A stretch of 64,000 bases of DNA from a virus. Taxonomy: Duplodnaviria; Caudoviricetes. The stretch lies in IMG/VR virus record IMGVR_UViG_3300028805_002025, positions 32,001 to 96,000 of that record. One strand, given 5' to 3'. Position numbers and translations under genes: made by a program. Numbering within the stretch: position 1 is the stretch's first letter; every line of letters begins with the position of its first letter. Under the pieces are notes generated by a model. It did no database searches and was not told where the DNA came from. It worked only from the letters and a program-made list of their open reading frames with translations. Of the stretch, positions 5,544 to 58,380 are shown piece by piece.

Positions 5544-7214
5544 CTACAACTTAATGTAATTGAGTATTTCCTGGCTAAGCGCACTCATTACTAGTTCCTC
5601 AGCTGTTGGTCTACGGACTTGTCCAGTCTTCTCGTCTTTTACCATATCGTCTCCGACAAGCATACTGATAATACTTCCGTCAAATCCACTAAAGAAATGA
5701 CATCCTGGGTCATGGGCATTACCTTCATAATCGGTATTGCCATATCTAGCGGCAACATCCCACCAAATAAAGGTCATATTATCGACAAACTCAGCTGGGA
5801 ATACCTGCTTAAGAGTGTTCTTTGAGTACTCGTAATTGGTTGGCTGGGTACGCTCACGTGACCAGTAGCTTCCAGCAGGATTAAACTGCATATCCGATAC
5901 CGTTATAATGGTGGTAGGCCAGTCCTCCAGAGGAATCTCTGGGTGCTGCTTACGAATCTTCACAATCTCCTCGACGATTGACTGGAAGTTAGTTCCACCA
6001 GCAGGTACGCCTGGAAGCTGTGCAACTCTGTCGCAGAAGCCCTCACCCTTGATATCATATGGGTATGAAGTGTTATCGAACATGATAATCTTGTTGTGGA
6101 ATGCACCAGTGTTCAGCTCACCGAAGAACAGTGCGAGTGAGTTAGCAACATCACTGCAAGTAACACCGTTCAAGCCACGAACCTGTGAACCCATAGAGCC
6201 ACTGGTGTCAAGTGCGCACCACACATTACCAGTAATCTTACCGTTCTTACGTGCGGTATCCACCAGACCCATGAACTGAGCGTCGATGGTGTGCTTAACC
6301 TCTGGAGAGATTCTTGAAACACCGTAACCCCTGTACAGGCCAGCCTCACGAGCCTTCTTAGCAAGCTCGAACACGTAGCCAGTGAACTTAGCCACAGGCT
6401 TACCCATAATCCACTGAGTGTACGCATCCTTCAAGTTGTGATTTGCAAGGAACTTGCTGGTCACAAGAAGGTTCAATGCACGACCTGGGATATGATTCCA
6501 GTTCAGCTCACCATAGTTACGTGAACAGATAAGCTTCTGGAAGTCATGTGCATTACCACTGGTCTTGAGCTTGTTGTACTCCTTATATGAAAGGTTCATA
6601 AAGGAAGCAAACTCCTTAGCCAGCTTGTTGGTGGTTTTAGTCCACTCAGTCTTGCACTTGCTCTCGCTCTTGATACGAGGCATATACTTCTTCACCAGGT
6701 CAACATGGGTATCACAAAGAAGACCCTGGGCGATGATTTCGAACATTGCCTCATGCTTCAATGTGTTAAGACCCTCATGGATGTCGTAGAACAACATTGT
6801 CCAGATGTCCTTCCATGAACCAACAACAGGGAGTGCCCATAGGTTGTTGTAGAAGGTTGCAGGGTGTTCCTTTGCAATCCAAAGGAAACGCTTGAATGAC
6901 TCATCACGAGCACCCTGTCCGTTCTGAACCTTGTCGGTCTCGTTCTCCTTATTGACCTTGACCTTACGTGTAACCATACGAAGGTAGAATGGGAAACGCA
7001 GAGCTGCCTCAGCATTCTCATCCCAGATTCTAGACTGGTCGGTGAAGACATCTGCCAGAGGACGACCTCTGAAGTTACCTGCCTTACCGAACTGGTCAAC
7101 TATCTGGCTACCAGTTGTCACGTTTGTCACTGCACCATTCTCTGTGAGAGTGGTTGCTCTGAAACCTACTGTTTCAACGAACTTGTTCGTCTGTGTTCTT
7201 GTCTTCGTGTTCAT
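5544..7214 (-). CDS. DUF2828-like protein (TROVE-like helical domain plus vWA)
   Basis: TLTENGA N-terminus, GSWKD, K-Y-M-P-R, MIDAS DTSGSM, GTNF, SDMQF. Confidence 0.8.
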   Translation of the reverse strand: MNTKTRTQTNKFVETVGFRATTLTENGAVTNVTTGSQIVDQFGKAGNFRGRPLADVFTDQSRIWDENAEAALRFPFYLRMVTRKVKVNKENETDKVQNGQGARDESFKRFLWIAKEHPATFYNNLWALPVVGSWKDIWTMLFYDIHEGLNTLKHEAMFEIIAQGLLCDTHVDLVKKYMPRIKSESKCKTEWTKTTNKLAKEFASFMNLSYKEYNKLKTSGNAHDFQKLICSRNYGELNWNHIPGRALNLLVTSKFLANHNLKDAYTQWIMGKPVAKFTGYVFELAKKAREAGLYRGYGVSRISPEVKHTIDAQFMGLVDTARKNGKITGNVWCALDTSGSMGSQVRGLNGVTCSDVANSLALFFGELNTGAFHNKIIMFDNTSYPYDIKGEGFCDRVAQLPGVPAGGTNFQSIVEEIVKIRKQHPEIPLEDWPTTIITVSDMQFNPAGSYWSRERTQPTNYEYSKNTLKQVFPAEFVDNMTFIWWDVAARYGNTDYEGNAHDPGCHFFSGFDGSIISMLVGDDMVKDEKTGQVRRPTAEELVMSALSQEILNYIKL

Positions 7215-10748: not shown

Positions 10749-11814
10749 CTGCTAATCTAAATCCCTTTACTATTGTATTATCACATTTAGCACCACATTC
10801 ACTCTTTTTAGGATAATCGGTATAACTTTCATCCCCGTCGTATTCCATTGGGTCAATTGGTACTGAGCAATCTTCTTCCGTCAATTGTTCCTCTGGCACT
10901 TTCTCTTTAACTTTAAAGCCAATTTGTTTAACCTCTTCCTCAGTAACTGTCACCTTACCATTTTTCTTGATGATATCATTAAGTCTATCAAAAAGCGCAA
11001 CTTCTGGAATCTGGTCTACATAGATACCCTGTATTACTTCCTTCAAGAAGTCAAAGGTGAAACCCTCTGTCTTTATGGTGTACCTCTCGATATCCTTCTT
11101 TACCTTCTCATCCTCAATGTCTATACCAGCATCCTTTAATTTCATTGTGATATAAGCCCTTCTTACATTCTCGTCTGGTTTCTTATACTCAATGACAAGG
11201 TTGAATCTGCTTGGTCTACAAGTAAACCTCTTCTCAAGTATCTGAGGGTAGTTTGTGGTTGCTATAGTGACAACGTTGTCAAACTGGGTATTGCCATCCA
11301 ATAACTGCAATAACATAGCAGTGTAGTGGTCATCCCTTGAAAGACGCTCGAAATCCTCTATAATGGTGACAATCTTCCTATTAGGCTCAATGTCCCTAAG
11401 CCTTTCCATACAGATATGGTAGGAACTGAGTGCCGATGTGTTGTCGATAAATATTACAACACCGTCATATTCATCTATCAGCTTGTGAGCCAATATGTTA
11501 ATCAACGATGTCTTACCATTACCTGGTAATGAATATAGAAGTATATTCCTTTTATATACATTACCAAACTGCCTATACCTTTCTTCTGAATCCCAGAACC
11601 TCTTAATGTCATTGAGTATATTCATCTGGATTTCATTAGGCAGTACATACAACTTAGGCATAATTATCTCCTTTTGTCTAAAGAACGCCTTTCCATGATA
11701 GGAATCAAATACAGGTTCATAGAACCCAGAAGGAAGAATGTCCCTTGTCTCGCCTATTGGCTGGAAGGTGTTGTCACTCTTCACGTAACGTGTGAAACTC
11801 TTTTCTCTTTCCAT
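10729..11814 (-). CDS. AAA+ ATPase (BCS1-like)
   Basis: YKRNILLYSLPGNGKT Walker A, IIEDFE Walker B, LDG, TTN, RPSRF arginine finger. Confidence 0.85.
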   Translation of the reverse strand: MEREKSFTRYVKSDNTFQPIGETRDILPSGFYEPVFDSYHGKAFFRQKEIIMPKLYVLPNEIQMNILNDIKRFWDSEERYRQFGNVYKRNILLYSLPGNGKTSLINILAHKLIDEYDGVVIFIDNTSALSSYHICMERLRDIEPNRKIVTIIEDFERLSRDDHYTAMLLQLLDGNTQFDNVVTIATTNYPQILEKRFTCRPSRFNLVIEYKKPDENVRRAYITMKLKDAGIDIEDEKVKKDIERYTIKTEGFTFDFLKEVIQGIYVDQIPEVALFDRLNDIIKKNGKVTVTEEEVKQIGFKVKEKVPEEQLTEEDCSVPIDPMEYDGDESYTDYPKKSECGAKCDNTIVKGFRLADEDNQG

Positions 11815-20780: not shown

Positions 20781-21166
20781 TTTTATTGATATACTTCCAA
20801 TATCTGTATTATTTCACTTCCCTATTTATAAGTAGGGTTATAATACATTGTTACTCTATAAGTACCTATAGCTACTATTTCCTCTGAATAGTGAGGATGA
20901 AGTTCTCCTCCAGAGCTTCTATCTACATTATACATTCTCACTTTAGCACGTGTTGCACAATTACCTCCATCTCTTATTTGCACGCTAGTATACATCAGTA
21001 TCAATGTCGGCAATACTATCAACCTTACGACCTTTCTTCTTGGTGCTTACTGGTTGTGTTGGTTTTTCGCCCTGTTTTACAATATAGATAAAAGAATCAT
21101 GCTCCATAATATAAATATTTTTTTATAAATACTTGTGTTTTCATATTTTTTCATTATATTTTATAC

Positions 21167-21637
21167 ATGGGACATGTTTATTTAATAGGCGCACGTGACC
21201 TACCAGGTAGATACAAGATAGGGTCTACCAGGGGTAAGAACGTTAACAAGAGACTGAAGCAGCTCCAGACTGGAAGCTCCTCAGAACTATACATAAAAGA
21301 ATCATATGAAACAGAGCATCCTTTCAAACTTGAAAAAATGCTCCACAATCACTTTGAATCATCAAACCTTATAGGGGAATGGTTCGAGCTGCCCGAAGCC
21401 GATACAAGGGACTTTAGGAGGCTCTGCGAGGACAAATCGAAGGTGATTGAGTCACTAAAAGACAATCCGTTCTATTTTAATGCAAGAATTGTACCCATGA
21501 AGATTGATTTTGAGAAGAAAAACAGCAACGGCAGGGTGTATAGCCAGGAAATGATGAAATCACTGATTGAAGACTTTAATACAAGATTAAGGGAATTTGG
21601 TGATGTGTTAGGAGAGCTTAATCATCCTGTGGAATAA
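21167..21637 (+). CDS. T5orf172-type GIY-YIG nuclease fused to an N-terminal fragment of a T4 gp21-like prohead protease
   Basis: VYLI...YKIG...RLKQLQTG...LEKMLH...GEWF followed by KNSNGRVYS...LGELNHP. Confidence 0.75.
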   Translation: MGHVYLIGARDLPGRYKIGSTRGKNVNKRLKQLQTGSSSELYIKESYETEHPFKLEKMLHNHFESSNLIGEWFELPEADTRDFRRLCEDKSKVIESLKDNPFYFNARIVPMKIDFEKKNSNGRVYSQEMMKSLIEDFNTRLREFGDVLGELNHPVE

Positions 21638-21669
21638 AAAAAGGAGAAACTTAGTCGGTTTCTCCTTTA
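21638..21669. terminator. Bidirectional terminator hairpin
   Basis: AAAGGAGAAAC...GTTTCTCCTTT after the GIY-YIG fusion. Confidence 0.7.
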
Positions 21670-21774
21670 TTTATAAGCTTCTCATAGAACTTGTCTATGG
21701 CATACTTTAATTCTCTTTCCGTATCACGGGACGATATGAATGGTAGCGTTCTCATCATGTCGGCTACCACCTCG

Positions 21775-25440: not shown

Positions 25441-25560
25441 AGATACGAAAATAGGGTATTCGGATTCCTGTTACAGACCGTAATACCCTGGTGTGCCTTA
25501 CGTTCAAGGCACTAAGCAATAAGTCATTTGACAATGAAGTCAAATACCAATCGACAAAAG

Positions 25561-25655
25561 TACCCCTGGAGGCTCTCGAAACCTCACTCCTACCGTTTAT
25601 CACTTCGGAACACAGATTCTCAACCGTGCGCGTCTTCCCTTTCCACCACAGGGGT
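25561..25655 (-). tRNA. Atypical tRNA-Leu(GAG)-like with 8-nt anticodon loop and long variable arm
   Basis: Acceptor ACCCCTG/CAGGGGT-A, Leu-type D arm, stem CACGG/CTGTG around TTGAGAAT, T arm GAGGT TTCGAGA GCCTC. Confidence 0.6.
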
Positions 25656-25697
25656 ATATATTGTGGGTATTACGTTCAAGTAACACCCTGTTGTTGC

Positions 25698-25958
25698 TTA
25701 AATACCATCATACATTCCTAATATTTTCTTTATTTTATCTCTTCTTTCTTTGCTCTTAGCTTCTTTATCATCAAACGTCTTAACCCATTCATTACCTTGA
25801 CTGGTAAGCTCCCAGGTCTCGCCATCAATGCTGATACATGATAGCCCACTCAACCTTCCGACACCACTCTCCCCAATTATGGCAGTAAGTTCATCAATGT
25901 CTCCACTACCATTGGTTATAATGGGATGTTGTATCATCTGTTTAAAAGTCAGCTCCAT
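25698..25958 (-). CDS. Hypothetical protein embedded in tRNA array
   Basis: Start moved to ATG just downstream of a tRNA-Leu; the longer ORF-track version overlaps tRNAs. Confidence 0.6.
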   Translation of the reverse strand: MELTFKQMIQHPIITNGSGDIDELTAIIGESGVGRLSGLSCISIDGETWELTSQGNEWVKTFDDKEAKSKERRDKIKKILGMYDGI

Positions 25959-26045: not shown

Positions 26046-26056
26046 ATGTAAATATG

Positions 26057-26144
26057 TACCCTCGGTGGGACTCGAACCCACACACTACTGTTATTTCGCA
26101 CCAGATTCTTAGTCTGGCATGTCTACCAATTCCATCACAAGGGC
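26057..26144 (-). tRNA. tRNA-Leu(AAG)
   Basis: Acceptor GCCCTTG/CGAGGGT-A, stem CCAGA/TCTGG, loop CT-AAG-AA, long variable arm, canonical T arm. Confidence 0.85.
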
Positions 26145-26150
26145 ATGATG

Positions 26151-26273
26151 TATCACCTGCTGTGTGAGCCAACGCCCGTACCCGTTGACACTCCGACCCT
26201 GCTCACATCACACATACAGACTGTACTCAAAAGAAGTGCAACATTGGACTTACCTTCTCGGTCTTACAGGTGA
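26151..26273 (-). ncRNA. Unassigned structured RNA within the tRNA array
   Basis: Closing stem TCACCTGT/GCAGGTGA, internal stems GAC/GTC, GCACT/AGTAC, GTGAGC/GCTCAC, CAACG/CGTTG; ends in TAC like flanking tRNAs. Confidence 0.45.
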
Positions 26274-26276
26274 ATG

Positions 26277-26358
26277 TATCCCTGGTGGGGGTCGAACCCA
26301 CATGTCCTCTCGAACATACGGTCTGAACGTACTGCGTCTACCATTGCGCCACAGAGAT
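26277..26358 (-). tRNA. tRNA-Leu(CAG)
   Basis: Acceptor ATCTCTG/CAGGGAT-A, stem GTACG/CGTAT, loop TT-CAG-AC, T arm GTGGG TTCGACC CCCAC. Confidence 0.85.
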
Positions 26359-26364
26359 ATGTTG

Positions 26365-26448
26365 TAGCTCTAGAGGGACTCGAACCCTCACGCCATCGCT
26401 GACACTTGATTTTGAGTCAAGCCTGTCTACCAATTCCAGCATAAAGCC
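26365..26448 (-). tRNA. tRNA-Leu(CAA)
   Basis: Acceptor GGCTTTA/TAGAGCT-A, stem CTTGA/TCAAG, loop CT-CAA-AA, canonical T arm. Confidence 0.9.
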
Positions 26449-56067: not shown

Positions 56068-58380
56068 TTAATGACCATTATAATGCTCATATACATTACT
56101 TTGCATTATCCTAGATGCTCTACAGTATGCTTCATTCAGTGATGAAACATAATCGCTCCATTTTTGTCCTACACTTGGTGTTGGTAGAGTATATTTATCT
56201 CTGTTATATACAACTATTCCCCTATACCTATACCTCTGATTTTCTTGAGTCGTTGATGGCGTTACATTCCATTTATCCGTTCTGACCCTTATCCAACCAG
56301 TATTATCAGAACTGCTAGTAGGGGCAATATTAATACCAATCACAAAATCATCATTAACGGTTACATAATGTTCTACATCACTATCGCTATATCCACTATA
56401 ATCATTAACGCCAAGAGATACTGTTGCAAGTACACCAAGTATTTTTGATTCATTACCATACGTCTCTTGTGTACTTGGGTCAATATCACCACTACTCTTA
56501 TATGTTGTTTCCTCAGTAAGTTTTACTATCATAATTGAGTCCATATATTGTCCATTTACTACACCGCTTTCATAGTTATCGCAAACTCCGAACATATATC
56601 CGTACATTGCAGCACCTTGTGAATAATTAGAAACACCACCACCATCATCATAGTGTATTCCTTCGGTGTCGTCATAACCAAGAAGCAAATTGGTTTGGAA
56701 GTAAGCATTCTTTGATACATACTCCTCATCAGCATCACAATTTTCAAACTTTTGTTGTATTATATCCGTGATACATGAGTTTCTAGTGCATAATCCAGTT
56801 CTCTCGCAATCAGTGCATGTATCCATACAGTATGCATCACCAATCTTAGGATATATCTTAACCATTACGTATCTTTCAATCTTGTCAGAACCAATATTTT
56901 GTTGTACATTGAACTTGATACCTCTATATTGTTGGTCATGATGATATGTCCATACTAGTTCATTAACGCCACTTTCTGCCTTGAACCAAAAACCATCATA
57001 AATATCGTGTTTTGTTTCAGCTTCAACAAGATTTCCATCTTGATATACTGCAATTAGGGCATCACTAAGGTTGCTATTAGAGTATCCTACCACTTTATAC
57101 TCTCCAGAACCAGCATATGCACAAGTTGCTTCATGTGCTGCTTTAATTTGGTCGAATGTTGGATTCTGAACTCCAGGAACTGTTGTATTAACATTATGAG
57201 TTCCATGTGATGAACGGTGTTCAATTAATGGAGTTATATCGTAAATTTCAACTCTAACATCTTTCCACATTTCATCAAGTATGTCATATGAACTTGCTGT
57301 ACCAAGTATGTATTCTGTTTGGCTAGCGGCTAATGCCAAACCATCAGTATGCTCAAGATAATAGTAATCAAAGCTATTTGCATAAGGATGATGCCAATGA
57401 TGGAAATCTACTTCGCTACATGTAGTAGGCTTATCAGAAGATGGCTCATCACACCCAGTTCCTTTAGGCTGTGTCAAAGACGTAGAAGAGCCATCTTCTG
57501 CTGTTAGATTAATATATCCATCATATGTAAAACCAATATTTGACCAAGTACGACTACCCTCAGTATTATTCCTAGTATACGTAATCATAATATCACCTTT
57601 ACCACTATTAGCATTACTTGGCACTGGTGTTCCAAACTTTACAGTTTCAATCCACGTTGGAAACTCTTGAGTATTTCTTCCAACTACTGAAAGGGCTGAA
57701 TTGTTTACGCTATTACATCCATTATAATAATATTCGCCTATTTTTTCTTGAAAATTGCTTCCACACCCATTAAGTGATGTTGCTGTTATGCTATATGATA
57801 ACTGTGCATTTTCACATGGTACTTGTGAAACGTTAGAAGTTCCAGCTCGTCTTCCTGCGTATGTAACCTCAATAGTTCCATAGACTGGCTGCGCTGTGTA
57901 TCCCCAAGATGCTACAACATCTCCTTGACCATTAGTAGGTTCAGTAAAACTGATTGACAAACCAGGTATACTTGATGTTGCACTCATTCTAGAAACGCTA
58001 AATGATGGAGAAGATGTGGTATACTGACCAATTATTTGATTTTCTCCAGAACAATCTAATTGCGTTTTAGTAATATTTAATGCATCAATACCAGTATCAG
58101 TAGGATTATTAGCAGCCTGTACCACTTTAAGCCTTTTATCGCCAGTACAATGAGAACCATTAATGACTGCTGTTATATAACCAATCCTTTCTTTATCGCT
58201 TTCGTTCGTTAAAACAGACACTCCAACTGCGTTTTCTGTTGAGGTGATTGCTGTTGATAGCCATCCTTCAGGACTTTCTGAGTCATATGATACGTCAAAA
58301 CTAGGTTTAGCACAAGTAGACGGTAAATTATATTTAGCGTTTTGTGTACTACCCTCGCTTGTAAAATACTTAGTAACCAT
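56068..58380 (-). CDS. Large Cys/Ser/Thr-rich virion-surface-like protein with BACON/Ig-like modules
   Basis: W-L/I...N....R.G.I...V.Q modules, beta-rich composition. Confidence 0.6.
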   Translation of the reverse strand: MVTKYFTSEGSTQNAKYNLPSTCAKPSFDVSYDSESPEGWLSTAITSTENAVGVSVLTNESDKERIGYITAVINGSHCTGDKRLKVVQAANNPTDTGIDALNITKTQLDCSGENQIIGQYTTSSPSFSVSRMSATSSIPGLSISFTEPTNGQGDVVASWGYTAQPVYGTIEVTYAGRRAGTSNVSQVPCENAQLSYSITATSLNGCGSNFQEKIGEYYYNGCNSVNNSALSVVGRNTQEFPTWIETVKFGTPVPSNANSGKGDIMITYTRNNTEGSRTWSNIGFTYDGYINLTAEDGSSTSLTQPKGTGCDEPSSDKPTTCSEVDFHHWHHPYANSFDYYYLEHTDGLALAASQTEYILGTASSYDILDEMWKDVRVEIYDITPLIEHRSSHGTHNVNTTVPGVQNPTFDQIKAAHEATCAYAGSGEYKVVGYSNSNLSDALIAVYQDGNLVEAETKHDIYDGFWFKAESGVNELVWTYHHDQQYRGIKFNVQQNIGSDKIERYVMVKIYPKIGDAYCMDTCTDCERTGLCTRNSCITDIIQQKFENCDADEEYVSKNAYFQTNLLLGYDDTEGIHYDDGGGVSNYSQGAAMYGYMFGVCDNYESGVVNGQYMDSIMIVKLTEETTYKSSGDIDPSTQETYGNESKILGVLATVSLGVNDYSGYSDSDVEHYVTVNDDFVIGINIAPTSSSDNTGWIRVRTDKWNVTPSTTQENQRYRYRGIVVYNRDKYTLPTPSVGQKWSDYVSSLNEAYCRASRIMQSNVYEHYNGH

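Follow-up and report, generated by a model that had tools for sequence, protein, structure and literature searches.

The gap between tRNA-Leu(CAG) and tRNA-Leu(AAG) in the tRNA array of a cattle-rumen jumbo phage holds a short element that we take, with a probability of roughly 0.6, to be the gene of a small non-coding RNA from a family outside Rfam, an RNA that would be released alongside the tRNAs, would bind a protein through its core and is dispensable to the phage. The element is best read as an RNA of the same kind as RNAC and RNAD of phage T4, with a fold of its own and a narrow distribution. An earlier note, made from the letters alone, had described an unassigned multi-stem RNA in a tRNA-sized slot at this place, and such an RNA is indeed genuine. 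It matches no Rfam family and its fold covaries.

Location and distribution of the element

The stretch of DNA analysed, here called the window, is 64 kb long and comprises bases 32001-96000 of a 241,681-bp IMG/VR virus record, which is estimated to be 75% complete and carries 43 tRNA genes and a tmRNA. The complete relatives of the window phage are 412-kb rumen phages. Every gene surrounding the element lies on the minus strand. Positions within the element are numbered n1 to n124 (window coordinate = 26274 - n), and in coordinates of the whole record the element occupies 58150-58273. The local array, in its own order, is as follows (tRNAs from ARAGORN/Rfam calls).

26448-26364, minus strand: tRNA-Leu(CAA), first in the local array order
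26276-26358, minus strand: tRNA-Leu(CAG), the upstream neighbour, which directly precedes the element in every copy found
26150-26273, minus strand: folded RNA element, 124 nt, defined from the sequence and the homologue alignment A4
26056-26144, minus strand: tRNA-Leu(AAG), the downstream neighbour
26045-25962, minus strand: tRNA-Leu(GAG), after tRNA-Leu(AAG)

The gap is filled by a discrete unit (26273-26150), as the earlier note had it, with spacers of 2 nt from tRNA-Leu(CAG) and 5 nt to tRNA-Leu(AAG). The G+C content of 0.49-0.52 is tRNA-like and, again in line with the note, higher than that of the nearby intergenic DNA (0.20-0.33). An exact-protein look-up of the neighbouring 87-aa ORF gave no match. 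The differences between the lineages described below have no 3-base periodicity, and the sense frames contain stops. An antisense ORF on the plus strand (26164-26367) was discarded, as it runs across tRNA-Leu(CAG), which is encoded on the other strand, and the differences lack codon periodicity.

Relatives were collected with the prohead-protease gene 2.7 kb upstream as bait, which fetched 36 IMG/VR loci and 80 metagenome loci. Among these the Leu/Gln tRNA array is syntenic yet mosaic. The sole blastn homologue of the element among the fetched loci, L050:10831-10938, is 83% identical; the full homologue spans 10820-10942 and starts 5 nt past the tRNA-Leu(CAG) of that phage. L050 is a 161.6-kb metagenome contig of a second rumen phage lineage, and its protease is 84% identical to that of the window phage. 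Exact-protein look-ups added further L050-type copies from several samples (L135/L157, L136, L152 and, in part, L139). A one-base variant of the L050-type element, G68A, is found in other samples (L137/L153), and L134 holds an identical copy of the window-type element. The L152 array is unbroken and reads Leu(CAA), Leu(CAG), 5 nt, element, 7 nt, Leu(GAG), Leu(AAG). The tRNA after the L050 element is disrupted by an HNH cassette, and its intact counterpart is found in L152 (5420-5506).

L050:10948-10975: 5' fragment of a tRNA-Leu directly after the element, followed by the HNH gene
L050:10948-11501: tRNA-Leu cut past the D arm, with the cassette (a 149-aa HNH-like gene), then a complete tRNA-Leu(GAG)

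With the covariance model R2 the element scores 153 bits and is the sole copy in the genome of the window phage. Over the 36 viral loci, the close metagenome relatives and three complete relatives, this model found L050-type copies only; the element is absent from the three complete 412-kb relatives, and a search of six close relatives with the filters off gave no match. It is also absent from L002 (protease 91% identical) and L051, although both have tRNA-Leu(CAG), which in L051 is 95% identical and has no element behind it. A blastn search of 50,697 phage records gave no match, nor did scanning IMG/VR for exact patterns taken from four separate parts of the element, and an 18-mer scan of 185,579 prokaryote genomes gave four, all of which were judged to be chance by the covariance model. 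The element is known from no more than two lineages of rumen phages.

Towards L002 and L051, homology ends exactly at the two boundaries of the element, so the element behaves as a module, like tRNA genes. Since close relatives lack it, it cannot be essential: any role is accessory, and the RNA is dispensable.

A polymorphism on a larger scale was seen among strains of the L050 phage. L150, L151, L155 and L156 share an identical 139-aa upstream protein with L152, and the Leu block (four tRNAs and the element) is either present or absent. Strains without the block have a 121-aa ORF at that place. The block is thus a presence/absence polymorphism, and some near-identical strains are without the whole of it.

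Fold and covariation

The window and L050 copies were compared in alignment A4, which has 27 differences in 124 columns and a gap within columns 8-12. The overall identity of 83% is near the 77-80% seen in the coding DNA on either side, which makes conservation by itself weak evidence. RNAalifold on A4 gave six helices (P1, P2a, P2, P3, P3a and P4) with 37 pairs, and all 37 form in both lineages. Six pairs carry compensatory double changes (one in P1, two each in P2a and P2, one in P3) and three have one-sided changes kept as wobble, each count being one pairwise comparison because there are only two independent lineages. The alignment of homologues that the earlier note had proposed as a check does contain covariation. 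When the 3' partners were slid by 1-3 columns as a control, 35-46% of the cells paired, with 0-1 double changes. In a random-substitution null for the first model, which had 30 pairs, at least four compensatory changes with at most one broken pair occurred in 7 of 100,000 trials (P = 7e-5). The parts of the fold are listed below; all lie on the minus strand.

n1-7 with n115-121: P1, closing stem, 7 conserved pairs (RNAalifold)
26266-26273 (n1-8): P1 5' strand, pairs with n114-121
26261-26263 (n11-13, GAC): P2a 5' strand, pairs with n53-55 (GUC)
26231-26259 (n15-24 with n33-43, A37 bulged): P2 hairpin, 8-nt loop GUCCA(A/G)UG at n25-32
26219-26230: invariant 9-nt internal loop UUGAGUACA (n44-52), then P2a 3' strand, n53-55 (alignment A4)
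26208-26214 (n60-66): P3 5' strand, pairs with n107-113 (26161-26167)
26181-26211 (n63-93): invariant core, 31 nt identical in both lineages, the longest identical run
26192-26207 (n67-82): P3a, predicted small hairpin in the invariant core, loop GCAGGG (RNAalifold)
26168-26189 (n85-91 with n100-106): P4 hairpin, 8-nt loop GG(U/A)ACGGG
26153-26160 (n114-121): P1 3' strand, then a 3-nt UAC tail (26152-26150)

The window copy has the 8-bp closing stem that had been noticed from its sequence (U1-A121 to U8-G114). Seven of these pairs are retained in L050, one of them through a change of C5-G117 to U-A. The remark that the unit ends in TAC like the tRNAs is correct for the window copy and fails for the homologue, which ends in UUU, i.e. 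the tail is not conserved. P2a reads AGC/GCU in L050, with two of its three pairs compensatory. The conserved pairs of P2 (n15-19 and 21-24 with 33-36 and 39-43) include two compensatory changes of A-U to G-C and one change of A-U to G-U; G20-C38 becomes U-U. The covariation in P3 is the change of U62-A111 to C-G. Note that the P3 register was picked after the data had been seen; both this change and G68A in L137 speak against the alternative, in which n68-73 would pair with n105-110.

The 43 nt of n63-105 contain a single change. The pairs that RNAalifold predicts for P3a (67 and 69-71 with 78-80 and 82) do not vary between the lineages, and P4 is mostly invariant, keeping seven pairs with G85-C106 changed to G-U and a single loop substitution. 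P3 plus P4 make up the long third arm, which has no T loop and had been pointed out earlier. The minimum free energy of -40.6 kcal/mol is unremarkable against dinucleotide shuffles (z = -1.4 to -1.6). In the corresponding single-sequence structure n53-60 pairs with n93-100; this inner helix has two breaks in the homologue and gave way to P3/P4.

Taken together, the alignment shows a conserved, covarying fold of the predicted RNA, in which P1 closes a side arm (P2a/P2) and a long arm (P3 with P3a and P4). As the 3' strand running through P4, P3 and P1 has a single unpaired base (n114), these three helices could stack into one rod, with P2a/P2 and P3a branching off the 5' strand. UCC in the P2 loop and GGG in the P3a loop, both invariant, could pair with each other.

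Known RNA classes and alternative explanations

A tRNA is recognised by its cloverleaf with D, anticodon and T arms, the last of which has a GTTCRANYC loop. What the element has in common with a class II tRNA such as tRNA-Leu is its place in a tRNA slot, a terminal stem of 7-8 bp, a G+C content like that of tRNAs and its linkage to the Leu tRNA block, with which it travels. It differs from a class II tRNA in that it has no cloverleaf, T loop or anticodon arm. Neither the default settings of ARAGORN nor lowered thresholds (-ps60 to -ps90), its intron option or its mitochondrial mode yielded a tRNA in the element. Rfam 15, which the earlier note had named as a check, returned no family at gathering level or at E<=10, RF00005 included, and the L050 copy had no match at E<=5. 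Ancestry from a tRNA was rejected, local alignment to 95 tRNAs of the phage group scoring within the shuffle range. The D-arm-like hairpin of the earlier note (GAC with GUC, 25-27) can be drawn in the window copy, yet it weakens to AGC/GUC in L050 and is contradicted by the covariation, in which G11-A12-C13 pairs with G53-U54-C55 and G15-A24 with U33-U43. The region taken for an anticodon-like hairpin is the 3' strand of P2 together with the invariant internal loop. A tRNA mimic in the cloverleaf sense is thus not borne out, with no T loop, a contradicted D arm and similarity to the 95 tRNAs at shuffle level. An antitoxin RNA had also been suggested. Type III antitoxin RNAs (ToxI-like) are short-unit tandem repeats beside the gene of a toxin endoribonuclease; the element has tRNAs on both sides, no neighbouring toxin gene and, in a search within it, no tandem repeats.

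Two explanations would do without a working free RNA. The element could be a decayed remnant, e.g. a former tRNA-Leu that had its interior exchanged as a homing-endonuclease cassette came and left, the closing stem being the surviving acceptor strands. HNH cassettes do split tRNAs in these arrays, and the L050 element is directly followed by such a tRNA-Leu fragment and HNH gene. Moreover, the window P1 (CACCUG/CAGGUG) is identical to the acceptor stem of the L050 tRNA-Leu(GAG), and the dispensability of the element is consistent with decay. However, a dead remnant would not keep up its interior helices, and P2a, P2 and P3 contain five of the six compensatory changes; none of the 95 tRNAs is significantly similar to the element, and ARAGORN is negative even at relaxed thresholds or with introns, so that we regard a remnant as unlikely. 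It is slightly less probable still that the element is a cis-acting folded insulator, which aids the folding or cutting of the neighbouring tRNA precursors and has no role once released. Its constant position flush against tRNA-Leu(CAG) would suit such a function, and the closing stem would prevent interference with the folding of the neighbours. Nevertheless, most tRNAs in these arrays are only 5-12 nt apart without any such element, the 95% identical tRNA-Leu(CAG) of L051 does without it, and the invariant 31-nt core and five helices exceed what an insulator needs.

The earlier note had also named a Y-like RNA, and the phage offers reasons to consider one. It encodes a Ro60-like (DUF2828) protein (window ~6747-7145, minus strand, i.e. 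G000:C1:38747-39145; 38 bits, in a 562-aa open frame) and an RtcB RNA ligase (G000:C1:29075-30298, 190 bits), and it carries YrlA-like RNAs among its tRNAs (G000:C1:18418-18542 and 20961-21037). The element might then be a Y-RNA-like partner of the Ro60-like protein, of a type without the usual handle. With the YrlA-type Y RNAs (RF02553; Chen et al. 2014, PMC4201824) it shares the small size, a terminal stem formed from both ends, a genome that encodes a Ro60-like protein and RtcB, and short string similarities in the core: the 11-nt string GUGAUGUGAGC of the invariant core is identical to the 5' end of M. smegmatis YrlA (primer sequence, PMC4201824), and GUCGGAG in the core is one base off the motif GNCGAA(N)G, although these short matches were noticed after the fact. 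YrlA RNAs have near-invariant T and D stem-loops and are encoded no more than ~4 kb from a same-strand Ro60 (TROVE) gene, whereas the element has neither stem-loop and is ~19 kb from the DUF2828 gene; no TROVE-domain protein was found in the 241.7-kb record. Single-family genome searches with Rfam YrlA (RF02553) and Y_RNA (RF00019) gave no match at 58150-58273, and the L050 copy matched neither family. The element resembles the RNAs with an ACAGCAA handle in its place among the tRNA genes of the same phage and in its closure by a 7-bp terminal helix, but ACAGCAA is absent beside this clamp: the P1 5' strand is followed by UAAGACC in the window and by GUAGCC in L050, and the ACAGCAG on the 3' strand of the window copy reads GCAACAAG in L050. 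On balance a Y-RNA-like partner is a rather improbable identity for the element.

The two YrlA-like RNAs fill gaps between tRNA genes. Both lie on the minus strand outside the window (also L141:1501-1625 and L140:1501-1577) and consist of a tRNA 3' half, about 16 nt and the matching 5' half. Both gaps are enclosed by a GGAAAC.../...GUUUCC stem with ACAGCAA after it, and with Rfam YrlA they score 32-37 bits (genome E 1.6e-7 to 3.3e-6), which is below the gathering score of 69. The Y-RNA-like tRNA mimics of the phage are these two split-half gap RNAs and not the element studied here. No CCA-adding enzyme was found in the 241.7 kb, though no tRNA gene there encodes CCA.

The closest parallel is found in T4, whose stable RNAC and RNAD (species 1 and 2 RNAs) have no assigned role (PMC3014915, PMC9697503). 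T4 rnaD (119 nt) lies 1 nt after tRNA-Arg, and rnaC (139 nt) follows 6 nt further, beside the homing-endonuclease gene segB. The element is likewise a non-tRNA RNA gene of similar size within a phage tRNA cluster with spacers of a few nt (window 2 and 5, L152 5 and 7, T4 1 and 6), and in L050 it too lies beside a homing-endonuclease gene. The folds differ, however: rnaC has a canonical T arm, which the element lacks, and rnaD has a 5' hairpin outside its long-range stem, while the helices of the element are all enclosed by P1. A direct relationship, in which the element would be a diverged homologue of rnaD, is very improbable. It would account for two 8-mers that the window copy and T4 rnaD share at similar positions, GGUAAGUC near the 5' end and CACAGCAG near the 3' end. 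Yet these strings occupy non-equivalent structural places, the L050 homologue differs at both (GUGAGUC and CGCAACAA), and the covariance model R1, built from nine T-even rnaD sequences and run with the filters off, gave no match on the element at E<=10. The resemblance was treated as chance.

T4 rnaD itself has no Rfam family. In the alignment of T4 rnaD (L040:1554-1672) with its eight T-even homologues (A2), the 5' 49 nt and the 3' 22 nt are almost invariant, whereas the central hairpin varies with compensation (10 pairs with double changes).

Proposed mechanism and wider context

No sigma-70-type promoter-like or terminator-like sites were found between the flanking tRNAs, and the array can accordingly be viewed as one transcription unit. 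The element would be transcribed together with the tRNAs from a promoter ahead of the array. Since the tRNAs on both sides are only a few nt away, excision along with them is the natural expectation. By analogy with tRNA processing and the T4 precedent, the 5' end would be released by 3' trimming of tRNA-Leu(CAG), and RNase P cleavage at the 5' end of tRNA-Leu(AAG) would set the 3' limit of the precursor. The freed RNA would be ~125-130 nt long with its ends locked in P1, and this closing stem would shield it from exonucleases, as with T4 RNAC and RNAD.

The invariant core and the loops form a putative surface to which a protein of tRNA or RNA metabolism would bind, and the RNA may act on it as a decoy or an adaptor. 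A search for antisense targets in the phage genome found a longest complementarity of 12 nt, and shuffles reach 11-15 nt. As no target stands above chance, action as an antisense regulator is unlikely and a protein-binding role for the core is favoured, with low confidence. A more specific and unlikely proposal is that the RNA mimics the shape of a tRNA without its sequence. The P1/P3/P4 rod and a contact between the P2 and P3a loops would form an elbow-like corner. A host factor that reads the shape of tRNA-Leu, e.g. a tRNA-cleaving defence nuclease, would be the target of this decoy or adaptor. The phage that carries the RNA with its Leu-tRNA block also encodes RtcB and Ro60-like RNPs, and such a tRNA-shape decoy, if true, would be a new class of phage counter-defence RNA.

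The tRNA region of the host phage is rich in other tRNA-associated RNAs, and the same phage encodes the RtcB ligase and the Ro60-like protein. Several peculiarities of this region and of the related arrays deserve mention. At 25560-25655 of the window, minus strand, there is a Leu-like tRNA of class II, 96 nt long, whose anticodon loop has 8 nt and for which ARAGORN gives a 4-base anticodon, 'gaga' or 'aaga'; it is kept in at least two relatives (L005:13302-13397, L049:6721-6816). In L011:13416-13700 and in L004 from ~13370, structured sequence extends for more than 200 nt beyond the 5' part of a tRNA-Leu (acceptor, D arm, anticodon stem) and resembles a group I intron placed in the anticodon loop. 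Many relatives have a conserved hairpin, GGGUAUUA(C/U)GG...CC(G/A)AAU(A/G)CCC, with a AAAUCACGUU-like box before it, just upstream of tRNA-Gln, and this hairpin may be a phage promoter or a processing signal.

25441-25559 and 25656-25700, minus strand: hairpin and box upstream of tRNA-Gln, also in L002:14150-14185, L003:13660-13700 and L008:13550-13585

The 183-nt G+C-rich gap between tRNA-Leu(GAG) and tRNA-Leu(AAG) of L050 (11590-11772) contains CUGAUGAG, has no Rfam match at E<=5 and may hold another array-embedded RNA. Finally, two tRNA-sized gap fillers that ARAGORN missed lie on the minus strand outside the window (G000:C1:10852-10957 and 21593-21709). One of them has an acceptor stem, a UUU anticodon arm and a T arm, but its D region is enlarged; the other combines an acceptor stem and a T arm with a 5' domain that is aberrant.

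Extra stable RNAs in phage tRNA clusters have been known since RNAC and RNAD of T4, and their role is unsettled after fifty years. The element provides an unrelated second example of this kind, with a fold that is backed by covariation. Its reach is limited to two rumen phage lineages with an uncultured host. Nevertheless, it is a small, defined and dispensable target for asking what the non-tRNA RNAs of such arrays do, e.g. in conflicts over tRNA cleavage and repair.
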